The notes: generated from the sequence alone by a model not told the origin. 64,000 bases of DNA from Thiogranum sp. (GCA_024636585.1 JAGXGS010000021.1:59722-123721), one strand, 5' to 3'. Shown: positions 436-9,088, counted from the stretch's first letter. A program made the numbers and translations.

Positions 436-489
436 GAGTGCCTCCAGTTACGTTCCATGATTTGATGTGTCACGGTGATTTTCACCGCT

Positions 490-1692
490 TCAGAATTCCT
501 GCCAGTCGCCGCCCGCAGGCGCCGCCTTGTTTACCGCACGCGCCGCCGCGCCGCGACCTGCCGCCGAGCCACGCGCCTTCCCCGCAGCCGGCTCGCTCAC
601 TGCGGCGGTTGCGGAACCGGCGCCAAAGAATTGCATGACCTCCACCAGTTTCCGCCCCTGCTCCTCGGCGGAGCGCGAGGCGGCCGCCGCTTCTTCTACC
701 AGTGCCGCATTCTGCTGCGTCACCTCGTCCATCTGTGCGATTGCGCGATTGACCTGCTCGATGCCCGCCGACTGCTCCTGACTCGCCGCGGCGATCTCGG
801 CAACGACATCCGTCACTTTCTTCACGCTCGCGACAATCTCGGTCAGGGTCTTTCCCGACTCATCAACCAGCGACGATCCGGCGCGGACTTTATCCACCGA
901 ATCCCCGATCAGATCCTTGATTTCCTTTGCCGCACCCGAAGACCGCTGGGCCAGGTTGCGAACTTCGGCCGCCACCACCGCGAAGCCGCGTCCCTGTTCA
1001 CCGGCGCGCGCCGCTTCCACCGCGGCATTCAGTGCCAGCAGGTTGGTCTGGAAAGCAATCTCGTCAATGACACTGATGATGTCCGCGATCTTGCGGCTGG
1101 AGGCGTTGATTTGACCCATCGCCGACACCGCCATCGCGACCACCTGACCACCCTGTTCAGCCTGGCTGCGCGCGCCCAGTGCCAGTTCGTTGGCCTGACG
1201 CGCGTTGCCGGCGTTCTGTTGCACAGTCGAAGTCATCTGCTCCATCGACGAGGCGCTTTCCTCGAGCGCGGCCGCCTGTTCCTGGGTGCGCTGGCTGAGA
1301 TCATCGTTACCGGCAGCAATTTCACGTGCCGAGGTGTTGACCGAGTCGGACGCGCAGCGCACCTCGCCAACGATCTGCGAAAGCTTTTCGCCCATCCGGC
1401 GCAGCGCGTTGAGCAGTTCGCCCAGTTCGTCGTTCCGCTCTATGCGGATGCTGTGATCAAGTTCGCCGTTCGCGATACGGCCGGCAACACTCACTGCCTG
1501 CTGCAGGGGCTGCACAATGGCCTTCACCAGCAGCCATGCCATCCACAGTACGAAGCCGGCACCAAGAACGATCGACACAATCGCAGTGGTGCGCATGACT
1601 GCGTAGAGTTCCGTGGCCTTATGATATTCCTCGCCGGCGATCTCCATCTGCAGCTTCAGAAGACTTTGCGTAACCTCGCCCACCGGCTCGTA
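490..1692 (-). pseudogene. Methyl-accepting chemotaxis protein, 3' half (TM2-HAMP-signalling domain, C-terminal pentapeptide DWQEF), separated from its 5' half by the IS
   Basis: Contains [30 protein letters not shown]. Joins in frame to 5645-6106 when the IS and one TSD copy are removed (...[14 protein letters not shown]...). Confidence 0.93.
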
Positions 1693-1700
1693 TAATGTTT

Positions 1701-1722
1701 CGGAAGTATGTACTTAACGAAA
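1701..1722 (+). repeat. Terminal inverted repeat of the IS1595 element (left end in window)
   Basis: Exact reverse complement of 5623-5644; preceded by TSD 1693-1700. Confidence 0.96.
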
Positions 1723-1766
1723 CGTGCGTGGGTATTTGGGCTGTTCAGCCCGTTAATTAGCAACCA

Positions 1767-1937
1767 CTAATCCTTCGGCTTCTTCTCTTTATCAGGCTTC
1801 GGCCAGCCTTCAGTTGGGCGCTCTTTCTTCAGGGCATCGCCCACGGCGTCCTCCCAGTCCTTGTCTATTTTGACGCGGTCTGGCTTTGGGCCGGTCTTAC
1901 TCTTTCCGTCCTCAGTGCTGGCTTTCTTCACCATCAT
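1767..1937 (-). CDS. Small Lys/Pro-rich hypothetical protein (56 aa), IS passenger
   Basis: Own translation MMVKKASTEDGKSKTGPKPDRVKIDKDWEDAVGDALKKERPTEGWPKPDKEKKPKD. Start overlaps the 3' end of the 305-aa gene; below the ORF-track cutoff. Confidence 0.6.
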   Translation of the reverse strand: MMVKKASTEDGKSKTGPKPDRVKIDKDWEDAVGDALKKERPTEGWPKPDKEKKPKD

Positions 1938-2829
1938 CAACATCCGACAGAACCAGTTTTTGAGCTTCCAGGAGCCGGATAAGCTTGCCTATCTCTTTTG
2001 GCCCCATGTCCCCAGATACCAGCAGCCGGTAGCTAATATCGCGTGAGAGTGGGCCACGCAGCCACTCTCGCTCGCTATCCGAAGTAGCGACACCTGGTAT
2101 TGGAAGAGTTGGGGGATTGACTCGCGGTGGCTGGTTATCCGATTGTCCACCCTTGCCTTCAACAATTACTTCGCTCATTGGAATGCCCGTCTGACTTCCA
2201 TCAATGAATACCCATGTCTGGCCTTCGTGTTCCTCAACCGCTCGCACACGCTTAGGTTGTTCGAGTTGGAGTACACCGCCAGACTCCCATTGCACCAGAT
2301 CTCCGATCTCCGCATTGTTTTCACCTTCTGGGCCTTCGTCCTGCACGCTGGCTTTATCAGGATTTATATACGATAAGGCGTCTTTATATACCTTAATTAT
2401 ATCAGAAACAGCATTGGGATTATACTCGCGACTGACGAGATAGTGCCGTAAATTCTCACCCGAAGCTTTACCATCAGGGTATTCGGCCACCAGATCACGA
2501 ATGATCTTAGGGGTAGTCGCAGCAGCCTCTAGTAGCTTACTCCTCTCCGGTGAAATCTCTCGTTCATCTCGGACGATGGATAAGCCCGCCTCTGTTAGAT
2601 TTACCACGCGATCGTTGCCAACACCTTTATCATCTATTAAACCAAAGGCTTTCAGCGCAGCAATGCTCAATTTCCCACCGCTACTCTTCTCACTATAATC
2701 CCAGTGGCTCACAACAGCAGATACAGGTGCCGCGTGCTTCCCCTCTTTTTCATAGAGTTTTTTCGCCCGAGCCACGCATTCTGTGAGAGTCAAACCCGGG
2801 TACGAAGGACTACGATGCCGTTTTGCCAT
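1912..2829 (-). CDS. Hypothetical protein (305 aa), IS passenger; N-terminal winged-HTH-like region, possible regulator
   Basis: Long ORF with GGAGA RBS and a sigma70-like promoter (TTGATA 2893-2888, TAAAAT 2869-2864). The ...SIAALKAFGLID...VNLTEAG segment resembles a wHTH wing. Confidence 0.75.
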   Translation of the reverse strand: MAKRHRSPSYPGLTLTECVARAKKLYEKEGKHAAPVSAVVSHWDYSEKSSGGKLSIAALKAFGLIDDKGVGNDRVVNLTEAGLSIVRDEREISPERSKLLEAAATTPKIIRDLVAEYPDGKASGENLRHYLVSREYNPNAVSDIIKVYKDALSYINPDKASVQDEGPEGENNAEIGDLVQWESGGVLQLEQPKRVRAVEEHEGQTWVFIDGSQTGIPMSEVIVEGKGGQSDNQPPRVNPPTLPIPGVATSDSEREWLRGPLSRDISYRLLVSGDMGPKEIGKLIRLLEAQKLVLSDVDDGEESQH

Positions 2830-2863
2830 GACTTAATCTCCGCTTGAATTTCAAAGTCAGGCT

Positions 2864-2930
2864 ATTTTATCTCCATGTGAGGAGATATATCAACTGAATT
2901 GTTTGACATATATCTCCGATAAGGTACAAT
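2864..2930. promoter_or_regulatory. Divergent sigma70 promoters with palindromic operators
   Basis: Rightward TTGACA (2903-2908)-N16-TACAAT (2925-2930); leftward TTGATA-N18-TAAAAT. Palindromes TATCTCC-N6-GGAGATA (2868-2887) and GGAGATATAT...ATATATCTCC (2881-2917). Confidence 0.7.
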
Positions 2931-3085
2931 TCCCCGCAATGAGGGTGCGGACCAAAAAGGAGGAATTAACTAGATGAGAAGAGCGAGAGGCTGGTCTGGC
3001 AGCCATGACCAAGCACCAAGAAGCAGAGGAAAGCTTGCTGGCCCCTGCTGCTACCTGGCGACCCAGATGGAACGATTATCATCTT

Positions 3086-3186
3086 GCCGACGTGGCGAAA
3101 TTGGTATACGCGGTGGCTTTGGAAGCTACTGGACACTGATCCTTGGGAGAGGGGAGTCCATGCGGGTTCGAATCCTGTCGTCGGCA
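3086..3186 (+). tRNA. Atypical class II tRNA: tRNA-Leu-like body, anticodon TGG (Pro), 31-nt variable arm, no encoded CCA
   Basis: Acceptor GCCGACG/CGTCGGC + A73; D-arm GCG-AAATTGGTATA-CGC; anticodon arm GTGGC-TTTGGAA-GCTAC (TGG at 3120-3122); variable arm TGGAC...GTCCA (3130-3160); T-arm GCGGG-TTCGAAT-CCTGT. Confidence 0.85.
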
Positions 3187-3233
3187 TTTTCACAAAATGC
3201 TATAGCAGTATATATGCTGCGGGAGTAATTTCA

Positions 3234-3380
3234 ATGGCAAAGAACGAGAAAACCTCGAAAAGCGTTGCTTCAAAAGCGGCAAAAATCCTTCGTAATCCGA
3301 GTTCTACGAAGGCCCAGAAGAGCGTAGCCGCATCTGCGCTCACCCAGGCCCCGGATAAGGGAAAGAAGGGCAAGAAGTAG
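3234..3380 (+). CDS. Small basic hypothetical protein (48 aa), IS passenger
   Basis: GGGAG RBS at 3221-3225 then ATG 3234; MAKNEKTSKSVASKAAKILRNPSSTKAQKSVAASALTQAPDKGKKGKK (true start inside ORF-track 3084..3380). Confidence 0.7.
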   Translation: MAKNEKTSKSVASKAAKILRNPSSTKAQKSVAASALTQAPDKGKKGKK

Positions 3381-3384
3381 TTAG

Positions 3385-3660
3385 TTAGGCTGTTTCAGCG
3401 AGTGGCTGGCTTATGTCAGTCACTCGTTTTATTGAACAATTGGGTATTGTGATCGTCCCGGACGCCTGCATATCATCACTGTCGGTATCGGCCAGGTTCG
3501 GTGCCAGCACTTTTGCGTCATCGCTCTCAAAGACCAGAAACCCTACAGACAAACAATTGCATACCGTGGGCGCCTCGATTGCCCCAATAAACTGCCAAGC
3601 CGGAACAGGCTGGCGGCTGTCCAGCCATTCAATGACAACAAGACGCGGAGTTTCAGGCAC
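3385..3660 (-). CDS. Small beta-rich hypothetical protein (~91 aa), translationally coupled to the transposase
   Basis: GTG 3660 lies just upstream of the transposase stop (GTGCCTGA). The LVVIEWLDS...CLSVGFLV...ITIP pattern resembles small phage/MGE proteins. Confidence 0.65.
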   Translation of the reverse strand: MPETPRLVVIEWLDSRQPVPAWQFIGAIEAPTVCNCLSVGFLVFESDDAKVLAPNLADTDSDDMQASGTITIPNCSIKRVTDISQPLAETA

Positions 3661-4615
3661 TTTTAACTGGCTCCCTGTAAAGAAGCCGTTTGCCATCTGC
3701 ACCACGTATAGCCGCTACTGTGCGGTCGCCATCTTCTAGGTGACGGTAGTTATAACGAAACTCGTATTCTGAAAGATAGCGGTGTAAATGCTCTTTTGAT
3801 ACTGAATGATAGATGCCATTCAGACCGCGTTTAACGATTGAGAAGAAACCCTCAATCGTGTTGCTGTGCACATCACCGCGCACGTATTCTTTACGGGCAT
3901 GATGGACAGCCGCATGACCATTCTTGAACTCAGCCCCAATACCACGGTAGGCCTGGTTCTCATCTGTTAGCAGCCGTGAAGCCTCTGGATCAATATTCTT
4001 CCTGATTTCCTTGCTCAGAGTCTTTGCTGTGACGTTGGCAATGACCTTGGTACGGACACGGCCTTTGCGCTCAACCATAGCCATAACGGCCTGCTTATTC
4101 GTTCCGCGCCCCGGTTTGCTCTGACCCTTGTAACGGGGCTTACCGCCGACATAGGTCTCATCAACCTCCACGTCCCCGGATAGTGGGCCGGGCGCTGAAT
4201 CAGACATGGCGAACCGAATACGATGTAGCAGGAACAGAGCTGATTTGTACGAAATTCCGGTATGACGGTGAATCTCAAGCGCGCTGACGCCTTTTTTGCT
4301 GGTAGATGCACGCCAGAAGCCATAGCACCAGTGGCGCAGCGGAATGCGGCTATCCTCAAATACAGTGCCTTTTCGGACGGTGAACTGGCTCTTGCAGCCA
4401 TTGCAGCGCCAGCGGAAGTTAGCCTGGCGCTCTTCCGTCTTGGAGTCCTTCATCTGATAAACGCTGGTGTCGCCACAATGCGGGCAGGCTGGATGATCGC
4501 CCCAACGCTGCTTTTCTAGGAATTCGACAGCCGCCGCTTCATCAGCGCAGGCGAGTGGAAGTTCCTGAATCACGGGGTCGTTCTTGGTGGATCGATTCTG
4601 TACTTTCTTGCCCAT
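3653..4615 (-). CDS. IS1595-family (ISXO2-like) DDE transposase with N-terminal Zn ribbon
   Basis: CPHCG...WRCNGC Zn ribbon; VEVDETYVGGK, LLTDE, HSNTIEGFFS, YLSEYEFRYN motifs. Confidence 0.95.
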   Translation of the reverse strand: MGKKVQNRSTKNDPVIQELPLACADEAAAVEFLEKQRWGDHPACPHCGDTSVYQMKDSKTEERQANFRWRCNGCKSQFTVRKGTVFEDSRIPLRHWCYGFWRASTSKKGVSALEIHRHTGISYKSALFLLHRIRFAMSDSAPGPLSGDVEVDETYVGGKPRYKGQSKPGRGTNKQAVMAMVERKGRVRTKVIANVTAKTLSKEIRKNIDPEASRLLTDENQAYRGIGAEFKNGHAAVHHARKEYVRGDVHSNTIEGFFSIVKRGLNGIYHSVSKEHLHRYLSEYEFRYNYRHLEDGDRTVAAIRGADGKRLLYREPVKSA

Positions 4616-4622
4616 GGGTAAA

Positions 4623-4650
4623 ATTATACTTGAGTAAACTCTTTTGTCAA
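4623..4650 (-). promoter_or_regulatory. Consensus sigma70 promoter for the transposase, probably leaderless mRNA
   Basis: TTGACA (4650-4645)-N16-TATAAT (4628-4623), then only 7 nt to ATG 4615, with no SD. Confidence 0.75.
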
Positions 4651-4697
4651 GTAAAAAGTTAGTTCATTGGCATGCTGAGTCTGTGCTCAAGATATAC

Positions 4698-4731
4698 TTG
4701 ACATGGACGAAAAACTATAAGTACTATAGTT
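4698..4731 (+). promoter_or_regulatory. sigma70 promoter and operator palindrome of the TA-like operon
   Basis: TTGACA (4698-4703)-N18-TACTAT (4722-4727); inverted repeat AACTATA-N5-TATAGTT (4713-4731) overlapping the -10. Confidence 0.7.
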
Positions 4732-4735
4732 ATCT

Positions 4736-5107
4736 ATGGTCACAAACATAGTCGAAATATCTCGCATCATAAAGCCCCGGCGAGGCGAGGTGATAAACAA
4801 ATTGCGGGCACGCCGACTGGTTTGTGAGATATCAAACGTTACCAAAGATATTTGTTTTACAGACCGCGCTAATGAGGATATGGGCAAAAAGCGTGTTACT
4901 AATGCACAAATAGTAGCTGCATTGCGATCTGGAGAATTAGTAAACGACCCGGAGTGGAGCATTGCCAATAAGGCGTGGGAATGCGAGACAGCACATAGTT
5001 TAGTAGCTGGACAGGATATCAAAATTTTATTTGCTATATATATAAATGACGATAGCGACGGGGAGAGGTGCCAGATTATAGTTTATTCAATACATTCAAG
5101 GGCTTAG
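4736..5107 (+). CDS. DUF4258-like putative RNase toxin (type II TA-like)
   Basis: ICFTDRANEDMGKKRVTNAQIVAALRSGELVNDPE resembles the DUF4258 FTxHAxxxMxxRxIT..xLxxG pattern. Immediately upstream of an XRE-HTH gene. Confidence 0.6.
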   Translation: MVTNIVEISRIIKPRRGEVINKLRARRLVCEISNVTKDICFTDRANEDMGKKRVTNAQIVAALRSGELVNDPEWSIANKAWECETAHSLVAGQDIKILFAIYINDDSDGERCQIIVYSIHSRA

Positions 5108-5109
5108 AT

Positions 5110-5559
5110 ATGTATCATTACAAAACATGCGGATTGCCAGATATATGGTTATCCAATGGTTACCAAAAAATAGATACCCCATATGGCGTAGCAGAATCAA
5201 TTGACGATCTAGATGGATTGCATAAAACAATTGCATTAGATGTTATTGACTCGGCTGAATTACTTACTGCTGACGAGGTTCGTTTTTTACGCAAAGAACT
5301 TGGTATGACCCAGCGACGTTTAGGTAACATTGTAGGCTACTCTTCTCAGTCGGTAGCACTGTGGGAGAAAGGTAAATCAAAAATAAAACCATCGGCAGAC
5401 CGTATTATCAGGAAAGTATACTTAGAGTATGCTAACCAGAATGAAACAATTGTTAATCTGGTTGACCGCCTAAATAGCATAGATAAAGAAGACCATCGGC
5501 GTAGACGTACATATATTGAAGATTCAGAAAGGGGATGGAAGCCACAAGAAGCAGCGTAA
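5110..5559 (+). CDS. XRE-family HTH protein, putative antitoxin/regulator
   Basis: MYHYKTCGLPDIWLSNGY N-terminus plus HTH EVRFLRKELGMTQRRLGNIVGYSSQSVALWEKG. ATG is 2 nt after the upstream stop. Confidence 0.8.
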   Translation: MYHYKTCGLPDIWLSNGYQKIDTPYGVAESIDDLDGLHKTIALDVIDSAELLTADEVRFLRKELGMTQRRLGNIVGYSSQSVALWEKGKSKIKPSADRIIRKVYLEYANQNETIVNLVDRLNSIDKEDHRRRRTYIEDSERGWKPQEAA

Positions 5560-5582
5560 CCCACACACCCTTTATTCAGATT

Positions 5583-5611
5583 AAAGCCCTGGTTTATGCG
5601 GGGCTTTTTTT
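5583..5611 (+). terminator. Rho-independent terminator after the TA-like operon
   Basis: AAAGCCC...GGGCTTT stem followed by a T run, just inside the right IR. Confidence 0.7.
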
Positions 5612-5622
5612 ATTCTCGTCCC

Positions 5623-5644
5623 TTTCGTTAAGTACATACTTCCG
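5623..5644 (-). repeat. Terminal inverted repeat of the IS1595 element (right end in window)
   Basis: TTTCGTTAAGTACATACTTCCG followed by TSD TAATGTTT. Confidence 0.96.
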
Positions 5645-6106
5645 TAATGTTTCCATCCGGTTCAGCACATGACGGCGCGCCTCGGCGTGCTGTCCGTCGC
5701 GCAGCAGCGCAATGGCCGGCTGCAGGCCCTGTGTAACAAACAGCTTGCGCTGTGCTGCGAACTGATCCGCGAGCCGGCGTTCTTCGGTCGTCAACCAGGT
5801 GGACATGTAGGCGTCCCAGATGTCACTGATCGATGCGATATTGGCTTCCACCGCCTCGGCATTGGCGCGACTGACTTCGCGATTTTCGCTCAACACCGCT
5901 CGACTGATCAGCAGCCGGTTCAACAGGATCAGGCGATCGATGCCAGCGAGCTGGTCCAGCGGTATGGTGCGATCTTCGTAGACGGTGCGTAACTCTTCCT
6001 TGACCTTGCCCAGGCTGACGACGCCCATGACGCCGATCGCAACCAGCAGCAGGATTGCGACACCCAGAGTGATGACGAGGCGCGCCTTGATGGTCAGTGA
6101 CTTCAT
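5645..6106 (-). pseudogene. MCP 5' half (TM1 + four-helix-bundle Tar-like ligand-binding domain), interrupted by the IS
   Basis: MKSLTIKARLVITLGVAILLLVAIGVMG TM1, then YEDRTIPLDQL 4HB. The last 16 aa of the ORF-track protein are read-through into the IS end. Confidence 0.92.
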
Positions 6107-6133
6107 CTCATAATCCTTTGCCGTCGCCGCCGG

Positions 6134-6661
6134 CTATTCGCTGCCGGCCGAGGTGATTTCCCTGATCTCATCGGGGCGCAACAGGCAATCGATGTCGAGC
6201 AGCATCACCATGTGATCTCCCACCGTAGCCAGTCCGTTGATGAAGTCGGCATCCACCGCAGTGCCAAAATCCGGTTTGGGCCGGATATCCGTTGCCGCGA
6301 TATTCAGCACATCAGAAACGGCGTCGACGACGATCCCGAAGGTGCGTTCGCGCCCCTCGGTGACCAGCGACAACACGATGACCACGGTGGTCGGTGTGTA
6401 TTCCACGGTGTCGAGATTGAAACGCATGCGCAGGTCGACGATCGGCACAATGGTGCCGCGCAGATTCAGCACCCCTTTCAGGTAGTCCGGTGCATTCGGA
6501 ATGATGGTGACCGGCGTCCAGCCCTTGATTTCCTGCACGCGCAGGATATCAACGCCGTATTCCTCGTTCGCCAGCGAAAAAGTGAGAAACTGGTTCGAGG
6601 CGTCGTCGCCGGATTCCGGCCCGCCCGAAGTACGTTCCGTGGTTGTCATGGCTTGCGTCAT
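6134..6661 (-). CDS. cheW: Chemotaxis coupling protein CheW
   Basis: QFLTFSLANEEYGVDILRVQEIKG...GVLNLRGTIVPIVDLR; AAGGAG RBS before ATG 6661. Confidence 0.95.
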   Translation of the reverse strand: MTQAMTTTERTSGGPESGDDASNQFLTFSLANEEYGVDILRVQEIKGWTPVTIIPNAPDYLKGVLNLRGTIVPIVDLRMRFNLDTVEYTPTTVVIVLSLVTEGRERTFGIVVDAVSDVLNIAATDIRPKPDFGTAVDADFINGLATVGDHMVMLLDIDCLLRPDEIREITSAGSE

Positions 6662-6677
6662 AATTTGCTCCTTGTTC

Positions 6678-8726
6678 CTAAGCCGATTTGCGCGCGGCGT
6701 CGAGCGACGGCGCATTGGTCAGACGAATCAGTCCGGGGACATCCATGATCAGTGCAACCGAGCCGTCGCCGAGTATGGTTGCCCCGGAGACACCTTCGAC
6801 GCGGCGATAATTGGATTCGAGGCTCTTGATCACAACCTGCTGCTGACCAAGCAGCTCATCGACAAAAACACCCGCCTTCTGCCCGTCGCCTTCGACTACC
6901 ACCAGCAGACCCTCGGTCAGATTCTCCGTATCCGCCTGAATATTGAAGAGACGGTGGAGCCGTATCACAGACAGGTAGTCGTCGCGCAGCCGGTACACTT
7001 CTGCCATGCCGGCGACCAGGTTGATCAGTTCCTCGCGAGCCTGCAAAGATTCGATAATGGAAACCAGTGGAATGATGTAAATCTGGTCACCGACGCGCAC
7101 CAGCTGCCCGTCGAGAATCGCCAGCGTCAACGGCAACCGTATAATAAAGCGCGAACCTTTGCCCTGCTGCGAATGCACTTCGACGCTGCCGCCCAACGAC
7201 TGGATGTTGCGTCGCACCACGTCCATACCGACGCCGCGACCCGATACATCGCTGACAGCATCGACGGTGGAAAAGCCCGGCTGGAAAATCAGGTCGCAGA
7301 TTTTCTCGTCGGTCATTTCAGCCACTTCGTCGTCACTTACCACGCCACGTTCGACCGCTTTGCCAAGGATCTTCTCGCGATTCAGCCCTGCGCCATCATC
7401 GCTGATCTCGATAACGATATTGCCGCCCTGGTGGCAGGCGTCCAGATGCAAAGTGCCGACTGCCGGTTTGCCGGCAGCGGTTCGCACCTCCGGCGTTTCG
7501 ATGCCATGATCAATCGCATTGCGCACCAGGTGCACCAGCGGATCACTGATTTTTTCCATCACGGTTTTATCGAGTTCGGTATTTTCACCCGACAGGCGCA
7601 GATCGATCTGCTTGTCGAGCTTGCCGCCCAGGTCGTGGACCAGGCGCGGAAAGCGATTGAACGCGAAGCTGATCGGCAACATGCGAATGCGCATGACCGA
7701 CTCCTGCAGTTCCCGCGTATTGCGTTCCAGTTCGGCCAGGCCGTCACAGAGCTTCTCGATCTGCGATTCGGTGGCACCCAGCGACAGACTCTCGCCGATC
7801 TGACCCAGCATCGACTGGGTAATTACCAGCTCGCCAACCATATTGATCAGCGCATCGATTTTATTGGTACCGACACGAATCGAACTGGCATCGGCGGTCG
7901 CTGCCGAGCCCCGGCGATCCTCGCTCTGCCGGCGGTCGGTGCGGCGGCGTTCCGCCACCAGCTCCCCGGCAACCGTTGGATCGCTCGCGGCATCCACTGC
8001 CGGGTCCTGCTGCGGCGCGGCCAGCGGCTCGATAGTCAGCGTGGACTCATCCGCCACCCAGGCGAATGCTTCATCGATAGCCGCACGTTCGACCTCAGCG
8101 TGCAATTCCAGATCCCAGCCGAGCAGGCAGGACTCAGGATCCAGCGCTGGCCATTCGGGTAGCGCCGAGTCGTCCAGTCGCACCCGCAATTCACCAAGAT
8201 CAGCAAGTTCACGCAAAATGCGCAACGGATCGTTGCCGGTACGCAGGATGTCCGGGTGTGGCCGAAAATGGATCCGCCAACCACCTGCAGCGGCCGCCGT
8301 GGCGACAGTCGCGGCAGTCGCTTCGCCACCGCCCTGCCCAAGCTCCGCCCGCAGCTGCGCCTGCAGTACATCGACAGCTGCCTGATCGACCGCTGCGCCG
8401 CCCTGTGCGGCAGCCACCAGCTCACGCAAAGCGTCGACCGCGCGCAGCAGCAGTGCTACCAGTCCCTGACTGACGTCACGGCTTCCATCGCGCACTTCGT
8501 CGAGCAAGGTCTCAAGAACGTGCGTGAAATCGGCAAGTGCGGTGAAACCGAAGGTCGCACTGCCACCCTTAATAGAGTGTGCAGCGCGAAAGATGCTGTT
8601 TATCATCTCGGCATCAACCGCGCCGGCATCGAGATTCAGCAACGCCGACTCCATCAGATCCAGGCCTTCCAGGCTCTCTTCAAAGAAGGTCTGATGAAAT
8701 TGCTCCATGCCGGTTGTGGTCGACAT
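6678..8726 (-). CDS. cheA: Chemotaxis histidine kinase CheA
   Basis: Hpt IFRAAHSIKGG, dimerization domain, HLVRNAIDHGIE, GRGVGMDVV and a C-terminal CheW-like domain. Confidence 0.97.
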   Translation of the reverse strand: MSTTTGMEQFHQTFFEESLEGLDLMESALLNLDAGAVDAEMINSIFRAAHSIKGGSATFGFTALADFTHVLETLLDEVRDGSRDVSQGLVALLLRAVDALRELVAAAQGGAAVDQAAVDVLQAQLRAELGQGGGEATAATVATAAAAGGWRIHFRPHPDILRTGNDPLRILRELADLGELRVRLDDSALPEWPALDPESCLLGWDLELHAEVERAAIDEAFAWVADESTLTIEPLAAPQQDPAVDAASDPTVAGELVAERRRTDRRQSEDRRGSAATADASSIRVGTNKIDALINMVGELVITQSMLGQIGESLSLGATESQIEKLCDGLAELERNTRELQESVMRIRMLPISFAFNRFPRLVHDLGGKLDKQIDLRLSGENTELDKTVMEKISDPLVHLVRNAIDHGIETPEVRTAAGKPAVGTLHLDACHQGGNIVIEISDDGAGLNREKILGKAVERGVVSDDEVAEMTDEKICDLIFQPGFSTVDAVSDVSGRGVGMDVVRRNIQSLGGSVEVHSQQGKGSRFIIRLPLTLAILDGQLVRVGDQIYIIPLVSIIESLQAREELINLVAGMAEVYRLRDDYLSVIRLHRLFNIQADTENLTEGLLVVVEGDGQKAGVFVDELLGQQQVVIKSLESNYRRVEGVSGATILGDGSVALIMDVPGLIRLTNAPSLDAARKSA

Positions 8727-9088
8727 TATCCGAGGACCTTTTTGATGGTGGCGAGAAGTTGTTCCGGATTGAAGGGTTTGACGATCCAGCCGGTGGCGCC
8801 TGCCGCCTTGCCTTCCTGTTTCTTGTTGGCCGCCGACTCAGTGGTCAGCATCAGCATCGGGGTAAACTTGTAATTGGGCAGCGTGCGGAGGTTTTTGATC
8901 AGGGTGATGCCATCCATTTTCGGCATGTTGACGTCGGTCAGAACCAGGTTCACCTGTTTGCCGCGTGCCATGGCAAGTGCCTGTTCTCCGTCTGCAGCTT
9001 CGACGACGTCGTAGCCGGCTCCCTTGAGCGTGAAGCTCACCATCTGTCGCATCGAGGTCGAATCGTCGACCGCAAGTATCGTTGCCAT
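8726..9088 (-). CDS. cheY: Chemotaxis response regulator CheY
   Basis: 120-aa single REC domain (ILAVDDS, LTDVNMPKMDG, WIVKPF) coupled to cheA. Confidence 0.93.
   Translation of the reverse strand: MATILAVDDSTSMRQMVSFTLKGAGYDVVEAADGEQALAMARGKQVNLVLTDVNMPKMDGITLIKNLRTLPNYKFTPMLMLTTESAANKKQEGKAAGATGWIVKPFNPEQLLATIKKVLG

Follow-up and report, generated by a model that had tools for sequence, protein, structure and literature searches.

Why an insertion sequence (IS) would carry a transfer RNA (tRNA) whose body and anticodon belong to different amino acids is the question raised by a locus of Thiogranum sp. The window, by which is meant the whole 64,000-nt stretch of DNA analysed (GCA_024636585.1 JAGXGS010000021.1:59722-123721), contains an element of the IS1595 family at positions 1701..5644. 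Besides its transposase, the element holds a tRNA with a leucine-type body and the proline anticodon UGG (Leu/UGG), a divergent 305-aa protein (p305), a toxin–antitoxin (TA)-like gene pair and a few small open reading frames (ORFs). The Leu-body/Pro-anticodon tRNA travels with the IS1595 clade of the window's transposase, and the transposases that accompany it are enriched in CCA, the codon matching this anticodon.

The tRNA and its transposase

The tRNA is located at 3086..3186 on the plus strand, where it is recognised by the Rfam model RF00005 (50.5 bits) and missed by a default ARAGORN run. It adopts a 7/5 cloverleaf (acceptor/T-stem) with a normally closing anticodon arm, an anticodon loop that reads UU-UGG-AA, and a variable arm with a 29-nt extra insert; the CCA end is not encoded. 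Leucine-identity features comprise A73, G18G19, an A15:U48-type hinge, A20a in the D-loop, G1:C72, C2:G71 and the long variable arm, G1:C72 taking the place of the C1:G72 pair of proline identity. The nearest host gene is tRNA-Leu(GAG), not tRNA-Pro(UGG). Passages of PMC9976931 state that the leucyl-tRNA synthetase (LeuRS) of E. coli relies on A73 and on the D/T hinge, with no regard to the anticodon, and that the E. coli prolyl-tRNA synthetase (ProRS) requires C1:G72; bacterial proline identity also involves G35, G36 and A73. Since LeuRS is blind to the anticodon and the host ProRS is of family II, the E. coli type that demands C1:G72, the tRNA is likely to be charged with leucine. The identity swap proposed in the initial annotation of this DNA is thus borne out by the combination of Leu body and Pro anticodon.

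A pattern combining the Leu D-arm with a UGG loop retrieved 14 viral loci and at least 120 metagenome loci (80 with long flanks), giving 123 distinct tRNAs, the window's included. Complete cloverleaves were kept for 87 of these; the remaining 36 were incomplete for the parser (truncated, of intron type or unparsed) and were dropped before counting, part of them being group I intron tRNA-Leu. All counts for this class, here and below, are among the matches listed. A73 is present in 86 of the 87 tRNAs, G1:C72 in 77 and C1:G72 in 5; the variable arms measure 14–51 nt, and the CCA end is encoded in 25 of 87. In an alignment of 46 tRNAs (43 of the Leu/UGG class and three others), 96.8% of the cells are paired, and two-sided changes occur in 22 of 24 pairs.

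Of 86 complete Leu/UGG tRNAs, 44 adjoin an IS1595 transposase; among those with at least 500 nt on each side, the figure is 30 of 43. The dropped matches serve as a control: a transposase of this family stands beside 2 of 36, and beside none of the 18 with flanks of at least 500 nt. Thirteen other elements bounded by inverted repeats and target duplications, 11 of IS1595 type and two of IS1 type, enclose the tRNA as well. Because UGG was forced by the pattern, a transposase-first search that left the anticodon free was added, covering 98 of 110 loci. It yielded 17 Leu-body matches above 60 bits, three on contigs already known and 14 new, the anticodons of the latter being UGG (9), AGG (2), UGC, GGA and UCU; none is a leucine anticodon, and 11 of the 14 are proline anticodons. 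Just under this threshold came an ordinary tRNA-Leu, which is part of a tRNA array (L344). In a FastTree phylogeny, the clade of the window's transposase (SH 99) has 30 rows, 26 of them with the tRNA.

Run over 151 genomes, the tRNA model matched ordinary tRNA-Leu as well. A scan of viral contigs for non-Leu anticodons returned mostly introns and other tRNAs among the matches listed, and a scan for the AGG anticodon gave one new locus, which lacks a transposase. Across loci, the tRNA is steadily accompanied by the transposase and by p58, a basic peptide of 56/58 aa with GPKP..WP motifs (1767..1943, minus strand). This regular companion of the transposase clade has a tblastn match in 24 of the 123 tRNA loci, the window included, and the window's copy has no match in Pfam, PHROG or PADLOC.

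The transposase gene (3653..4615, minus strand) encodes a Zn ribbon and a DDE domain (D152, D218, E255), with CCA at P20, P42, P144, P210 and P316. In transposases that adjoin a Leu-body tRNA, 137 of 397 prolines are encoded by CCA, compared with 89 of 719 in the others at equal GC3, and other NNA codons are little changed between the two groups. When each gene's own NNA rate sets the expectation, 133 CCA codons are observed against 60 expected in 33 UGG elements, and 107 against 106 in 87 elements without the tRNA. The excess is located at P20, at the last proline and in the linker that leads up to the first catalytic Asp. P20 is CCA in 21 of 24 cases; for linker prolines the counts are 42 of 58 with the tRNA and 10 of 90 without, and for the C-terminal proline 19 of 23 and 3 of 25. 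The conserved prolines P42, P45, P92 and P176 are unbiased (CCA in 14 of 105). The fixed CCA sites, all three of which are CCA in the window's transposase, fall in variable loops and at the termini, positions at which many other residues occur in relatives. In the host, CCA is a minor codon (13.7% of proline codons). Elements with an AGG anticodon lean to CCT: L336 has four CCT and no CCA, and in L357 both signature sites are CCT. A corresponding pattern is seen in IS1-type elements that have p305, a leader and, directly 5' of the transposase, a tRNA with the anticodon UAC, since five such elements contain 36 GTA codons against 11.9 expected; two further IS1-type elements found tRNA-first also have a GTA cluster.

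The Leu/UGG tRNA is found in other surroundings too. Two IS1-type elements with GGTAGTG ends (L127 and L154) carry it converging on an NYN-domain gene, and in a phage tRNA cluster (L079/L081), where no IS transposase match was obtained, it is followed directly by an ACU tRNA. Short tRNA-like remnants, with a T-arm and acceptor and a poor D-arm, occur near IS1595 transposases at L332:5945-6011, L379:4921-4988 and L371:3874-3940.

The probable divergent regulator and the leader

The p305 gene (1912..2829, minus strand) encodes a protein with 323 homologues, modelled with a predicted local distance difference test (pLDDT) score of 87 as an N-terminal winged helix, a helical domain, a KOW/SH3-like barrel and a C-terminal beta-beta-alpha part, the last barely probed by the fold searches. 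The winged helix resembles MarR-type winged helix-turn-helix (wHTH) domains (Z 9.6, root-mean-square deviation (rmsd) 2.3, 73 aligned), and the best match of the barrel, a middling one, is Spt5 KOW (Z 7.0, rmsd 2.3, 56 aligned). PafBC, which like DriD is a WYL activator built of wHTH, WYL and WCX domains, is the top Foldseek row (E 4e-4, TM 0.17); the barrel is nearer to KOW/Tudor, and no WYL Pfam domain was found in 67 members of the p305 family. A role of p305 as toxin or nuclease was rejected, since Pfam, PHROG and PADLOC give it no support and the folds are wHTH and KOW-like. From its modelled structure, p305 likely regulates the divergent leader–tRNA transcript.

Between the two transcripts lie back-to-back sigma-70-like promoters (2864..2930), leftward for p305 and rightward for the leader and tRNA. 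They overlap ATCTCC/GGAGAT boxes (at 2836, 2869, 2881 and 2912), which form a candidate operator in the window; as a family-wide operator the boxes were rejected, as they are not among the words enriched in relatives. The leader (2959..3085, plus strand) has a GGAGG followed by an ATG at 2974 and then AGA AGA GCG AGA, with tandem arginine codons that are rare in the host (AGA 3% and AGG 5% of arginine codons). In relatives two hairpins follow, which are less clear in the window. Facing p305, a start codon with AGR-AGR within three codons is present at 28 of 49 loci, compared with 173 of 6594 background windows (2.6%), and AGR-AGR falls in frame in 27 cases and out of frame in 7 and 5.

The p305 gene was found at 55 genome loci, or 53 once three copies of one element are merged. 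At 14 of the 53, an odd tRNA lies divergently, 107–360 nt upstream of p305 on the opposite strand, and the link between tRNA and 305-aa regulator suggested earlier therefore holds. The tRNAs at these loci are Leu/UGG (L016, L024), Gln-like UAC, often with an 8-nt loop (six), ACU (two) and, one each, CGU, UCC, a Ser-body amber reader CUA and an allo-like UAU; their body labels represent the author's D-arm reading, and that of L049 was detected only by relaxed ARAGORN and an own descriptor. Fourteen p305 loci are inside repeat-bounded elements, and many are near transposases of IS1 or IS1595 type. In the IS1-type elements the order on one strand is leader, tRNA, transposase. Four UAC tRNAs found tRNA-first all have the leader hairpin, two have p305 and three an IS1-type transposase. 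Among the matches listed, p305 is absent from the other 122 Leu/UGG loci, and the leader precedes 3 of 82 other Leu/UGG tRNAs; codon coupling of p305 genes to the tRNA was not found. Since p305, leader and odd tRNA are linked with one another, as are transposase, p58 and tRNA, the window joins, judging from these associations, two linked modules.

Several of the tRNAs mentioned deserve separate description. The UAC tRNAs upstream of IS1-type transposases with GTA clusters (L014, L021, L023, L032, L038, L040 and L449–L452) have a Gln/Glu-like D-arm, a U1:A72-type acceptor and, in several cases, an 8-nt anticodon loop; they could be disguised tRNA-Val or readers of frameshift or ochre sites. The Ser-body amber CUA tRNA (L042:6702-6791, minus strand) is divergent from a p305 homologue, with no transposase found nearby. 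One p305-like locus is present three times in an Opitutaceae genome (L044–L046), where a UCC tRNA lies upstream and, downstream, there is a Ser-like body whose anticodon is GAU. An ACU tRNA with a D-loop insertion of about 45 nt (L036:6592-6709, minus strand) belongs to a locus whose layout is sister to that of L039.

Readings of the tRNA

The reading preferred here, although it is held at somewhat less than an even chance, is that the leucine-charged tRNA reads the CCA codons of its own transposase and thereby gates or boosts transposase synthesis, while the timing of tRNA production would be determined by p305 and the Arg-codon leader. As a minor proline codon of the host, CCA would slow or block translation of the transposase if the host's tRNA-Pro(UGG) ran short or suffered damage. 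The tRNA of the element would then bypass these sites with leucine, which would be tolerated in variable loops. In the window's copy, the divergent p305 would control the tRNA, and the tandem AGA/AGG codons of the leader would sense slow translation.

Several observations weigh against this reading. Many of the tRNA-bearing rows of the transposase tree, 26 of 30 in the window's clade, were found via the tRNA. A test of independent pairs had four supported pairs (mean 2.4 in the same direction and 0.1 in the opposite one, p 0.5), so co-evolution of tRNA and codons is not statistically shown by this underpowered test. In tRNA-less transposases the C-terminal proline is CCT in 18 of 25 despite high GC3, which implies that a constraint on rare proline codons exists without the tRNA. 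The coupling has exceptions: CCA makes up 5 of 15 prolines in L340 (UGC), 4 of 13 in L432 (UCU) and 3 of 16 in L357 (AGG); L027 has a GTA cluster and no detected tRNA; GTA in L449 is 6 overall against 4.5 expected; L039, L017 and L049 are exceptions likewise. No clear matching bias was seen in the IS1-type elements with a UGG tRNA (L127, L154), nor in those with ACU, CGU or UAU tRNAs. The conserved P42 of the window's own transposase is CCA too. Since the host has a tRNA-Pro(UGG), the transposase is not strictly dependent on the element's tRNA. Finally, whether the tRNA would boost or damp synthesis is argued solely from the location of the codons. The tRNA-less IS1595 clade with the C-terminal CCT includes, for example, L343, L354, L360, L365 and L369, and CGA is often nearby.

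A wider reading is more tentative still. IS1595 and IS1 elements may hold private decoding circuits, each consisting of an odd tRNA and a transposase seeded with its codon (CCA for Leu/UGG, GTA for UAC), the tRNA often standing behind the winged-helix/KOW regulator and a rare-Arg attenuator; a code change encoded by the element itself would then switch transposition when host translation is under attack.

Three other explanations have to be weighed. That the tRNA is a toxic mistranslator (proline to leucine throughout the proteome), silenced by p305, by the leader or by a TA antitoxin until phage infection or stress frees it, is unlikely; this would be the abortive-infection or addiction idea of the initial annotation, in a form that does not require the present TA pair. 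The toxicity itself has precedent, as passages of PMC5389517 report that E. coli was arrested and killed when missense allo-tRNAs were induced, and that allo-tRNA genes are located near TA systems; furthermore, cargo of TA or defence type turns up repeatedly in related elements, the tRNA is preceded by a conserved leader and a regulator, and many different swapped tRNAs, an amber reader among them, stand at p305 loci. However, an element carrying a toxic tRNA of this kind is predicted to avoid CCA, and its transposase is enriched in this codon instead. The TA pair assorts independently, no PADLOC model beyond the HTH level was matched, and the leader precedes just the 3 of 82 other Leu/UGG tRNAs given above.

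It is harder to credit that the tRNA damps transposition, with leucine at CCA producing an inactive or unstable transposase as copies accumulate and thus a copy-number control in trans. Such damping would explain the fixation of CCA equally well, and a stable tRNA acts in trans in a genome (G000) where the element is single-copy; yet it is variable loops and termini, not the best-conserved prolines, that hold the fixed sites, and repressing a single gene through mistranslation of every host CCA would be costly.

More doubtful than either is a non-decoding role of the tRNA-like RNA, as a decoy for a nuclease or synthetase or as a structural or processing element, the CCA bias then stemming, for instance, from clade-inherited pausing at rare proline codons: the conserved CCT at the same site in the tRNA-less clade, the non-significant pair test, the range of variable arms, the frequent lack of an encoded CCA end and the inactivity in translation of the commonest allo-tRNA(UAU) group, as described in part of PMC5389517, would agree with this, whereas the covariation of a full cloverleaf with leucine identity bases kept, the proline anticodons in 11 of 14 unselected cases and the match of codon and anticodon in two IS families speak for decoding. 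A remnant of an integration site was rejected because the tRNA lies mid-element and the ends are of transposase type.

The transporter, its passengers and known systems

The element is a recently inserted, cargo-carrying IS1595 transporter of 3,944 bp. It is bounded by perfect 22-bp inverted repeats, the left one (1701..1722, plus strand) beginning CGGAAGTATG and the right one (5623..5644, minus strand) matching it perfectly; related elements have similar ends. An 8-bp target duplication, TAATGTTT, flanks it at 1693..1700 and, by sequence, at 5645..5652. The left copy lies within a gene for a methyl-accepting chemoreceptor, for which the basis is the sequence, the empty frame and the empty allele: removal in silico of the element and one duplication copy regains one open frame of 554 codons, and run X2 contains a contig, at a depth of 9.3, from which 3,952 bases (the element and one duplication) are missing, the filled allele having a depth of 31.3. 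Run X2 belongs to the same study as the likely source of the window and may be the source sample. Nothing from the RNA run X3 aligned, an outcome that carries no weight for or against expression. The split gene is part of a che cluster at 438-9088 (cheY, cheA, cheW, a methyl-accepting chemotaxis protein and a PAS-domain receptor), and both alleles are in the population. The recent movement suggested in the initial annotation from the perfect repeats and the duplication is supported by ends, frame and empty allele alike.

The GC content is about 0.48 in the element and about 0.6 in its flanks. In G000 the element occurs once; among 40 related genomes no close relative was found except a transposase/p58 remnant in G005, and a search of plasmid DNA matched the 48-aa gene only. 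The IS1595 assignment follows from a DDE_Tnp_IS1595 domain, an N-terminal Zn ribbon, the terminal inverted repeats and the 8-bp duplication, with profile matches to PF12762 (E 1e-40), PF12760 (E 1e-12) and NF033547 (190.6 bits, cut-off 75). Because one pair of ends encloses a single transposase together with passenger genes, it is a transporter IS (tIS), in agreement with the original description as a cargo carrier. The ends start with CGG and the size is 3.9 kb; CGG ends and a size of 3.5–8 kb are features of the ISNha5 subgroup, of which the element is a candidate member. The layout given earlier is also correct, with ORFs of 91, 48, 305 and 56/58 aa on one side of the transposase and of 123 and 149 aa on the other, all present together with the tRNA. 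Its four sigma-70-like promoters are found as good sequence matches at 4650-4623 (minus), 4698-4727 (plus), 2903-2930 (plus) and 2893-2864 (minus), within a total of 11 such sites against a shuffle mean of 4.7. The first two are arranged back to back (4623..4727), one directed at the transposase (12/12), the other at the TA-like pair (10/12).

This pair consists of a 123-aa DUF4258-like ORF (4736..5107, plus strand; the true start may be later), the putative toxin, and a 149-aa XRE-HTH protein (5110..5559, plus strand), an MqsA-like putative antitoxin, followed by an intrinsic-terminator-like hairpin (5583..5617, plus strand) 3' of the XRE gene. The XRE protein matches HTH_3 (E 4e-6), phrog_5119 (E 6e-31) and, under cut-off, TIGR03830 (E 1e-10); from the whole cargo, PADLOC 2.0 gave only HTH-level matches for this protein and one match at E 0.03. 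The Pfam match of the partner to DUF4258 is under cut-off (E 0.072), and its homologue search returned itself only. Its label is mainly positional: in 2 of 2 records, both on plasmids, a relative of the XRE gene comes after an annotated DUF4258 gene. Gene order, sizes, an own promoter and an HTH partner are as in the predicted type II TA systems of DUF4258 and HTH (MqsA-like) proteins; unlike in those, the toxin match is under cut-off, and the putative pair is not part of the tRNA module.

Among 444 loci, the XRE and DUF4258-like proteins match only the window's own copies, and relatives of the pair occur on two plasmids without annotated tRNA or IS. The 13 other complete tRNA-bearing elements have unrelated cargo (RelE-like/XRE, AlbA, IrrE/XRE, NYN, GNAT, dCTP deaminase-like), where RelE-like is the author's own sequence reading and some genes are unassigned. 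The initial annotation had taken tRNA, TA pair and regulator for one addiction or abortive-infection system and had itself named independent assortment of the cargo as the outcome that would speak against it. Independent assortment is what the TA pair displays, and the single unit is accordingly rejected; of the co-occurrence expected among related elements, the link of tRNA and 305-aa protein is confirmed, while the TA pair is in no other of the 444 loci. As far as distribution indicates, the 48-aa peptide rides as replaceable passenger cargo, and so does the TA-like pair. The 48-aa basic peptide (3234..3380, plus strand; phrog_5079, E 6e-13) recurs in L011 and L356, both without a tRNA. A 91-aa protein with an EWLD motif (3385..3660, minus strand; phrog_25889, E 2e-4) is an occasional companion of p305/leader elements, with eight matches including itself, and is present in L015 and L449. 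At L073:1490-2938, a Schlafen/AlbA_2-domain protein inside an IS1595 element adjoins a Leu/UGG tRNA.

In Streptomyces, the bldA tRNA-Leu gates genes with TTA codons, and phage tRNAs are matched to phage codons, so that a tRNA controls the genes that keep its codon. Those tRNAs are cognate, whereas the tRNA of the element would change the amino acid and serve one transposase. No synthetase ORF was found in the element.

Passenger genes of IS1595 tIS include regulators, according to passages of PMC11891212 and PMC8101967 that cite Siguier et al. 2009. ISNha5-like tIS share the Zn-ribbon and DDE transposase, the 8-bp duplication, the terminal repeats and the passengers, but the window's clade has in addition the swapped tRNA, the 56/58-aa peptide and anticodon-matched codons; the same passages on tIS name no tRNA passenger. 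Allo-tRNAs, as presented in parts of PMC5389517 by Mukai et al. 2017, likewise have disagreeing identity and anticodon and lie near TA genes and mobile DNA, and L049 carries an allo-like UAU tRNA; theirs are 8/4 or 9/3 structures, mostly with Ser identity, unlike the 7/5 Leu body of the element's tRNA, and coupling to transposase codons or a regulator is not reported in those parts. The tRNA-ProX/ProRSx pair of Streptomyces and Kitasatospora is, in passages of PMC11415595, also a natural bacterial mistranslator of sense codons (predicted or shown) that involves proline. There, a Pro body bears a non-Pro anticodon and has its own synthetase, whereas the element's tRNA bears a Pro anticodon, is predicted to use the host LeuRS and rides on an IS. 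Searches of the open-licence literature turned up no account of Leu/Pro tRNAs borne by an IS, nor of the leader, and the portion of the PMC5389517 supplement text covered gave no match for such tRNAs.

Natural missense tRNAs are known in bacteria, their purpose being an open question in the passages of PMC5389517 and PMC11415595. A widespread class of them here gains a candidate target in the transposase of its own element, along with a candidate control region, so that its role becomes testable by codon swaps. Standard scans miss or mislabel such genes, as ARAGORN does by default in the window, a tRNA-Pro label being given elsewhere. Natural tRNAs of suppressor type (Leu/Pro, amber, 8-nt loops) can also be drawn from these elements, and the preferred reading, if true, would represent a new way of regulating transposition.

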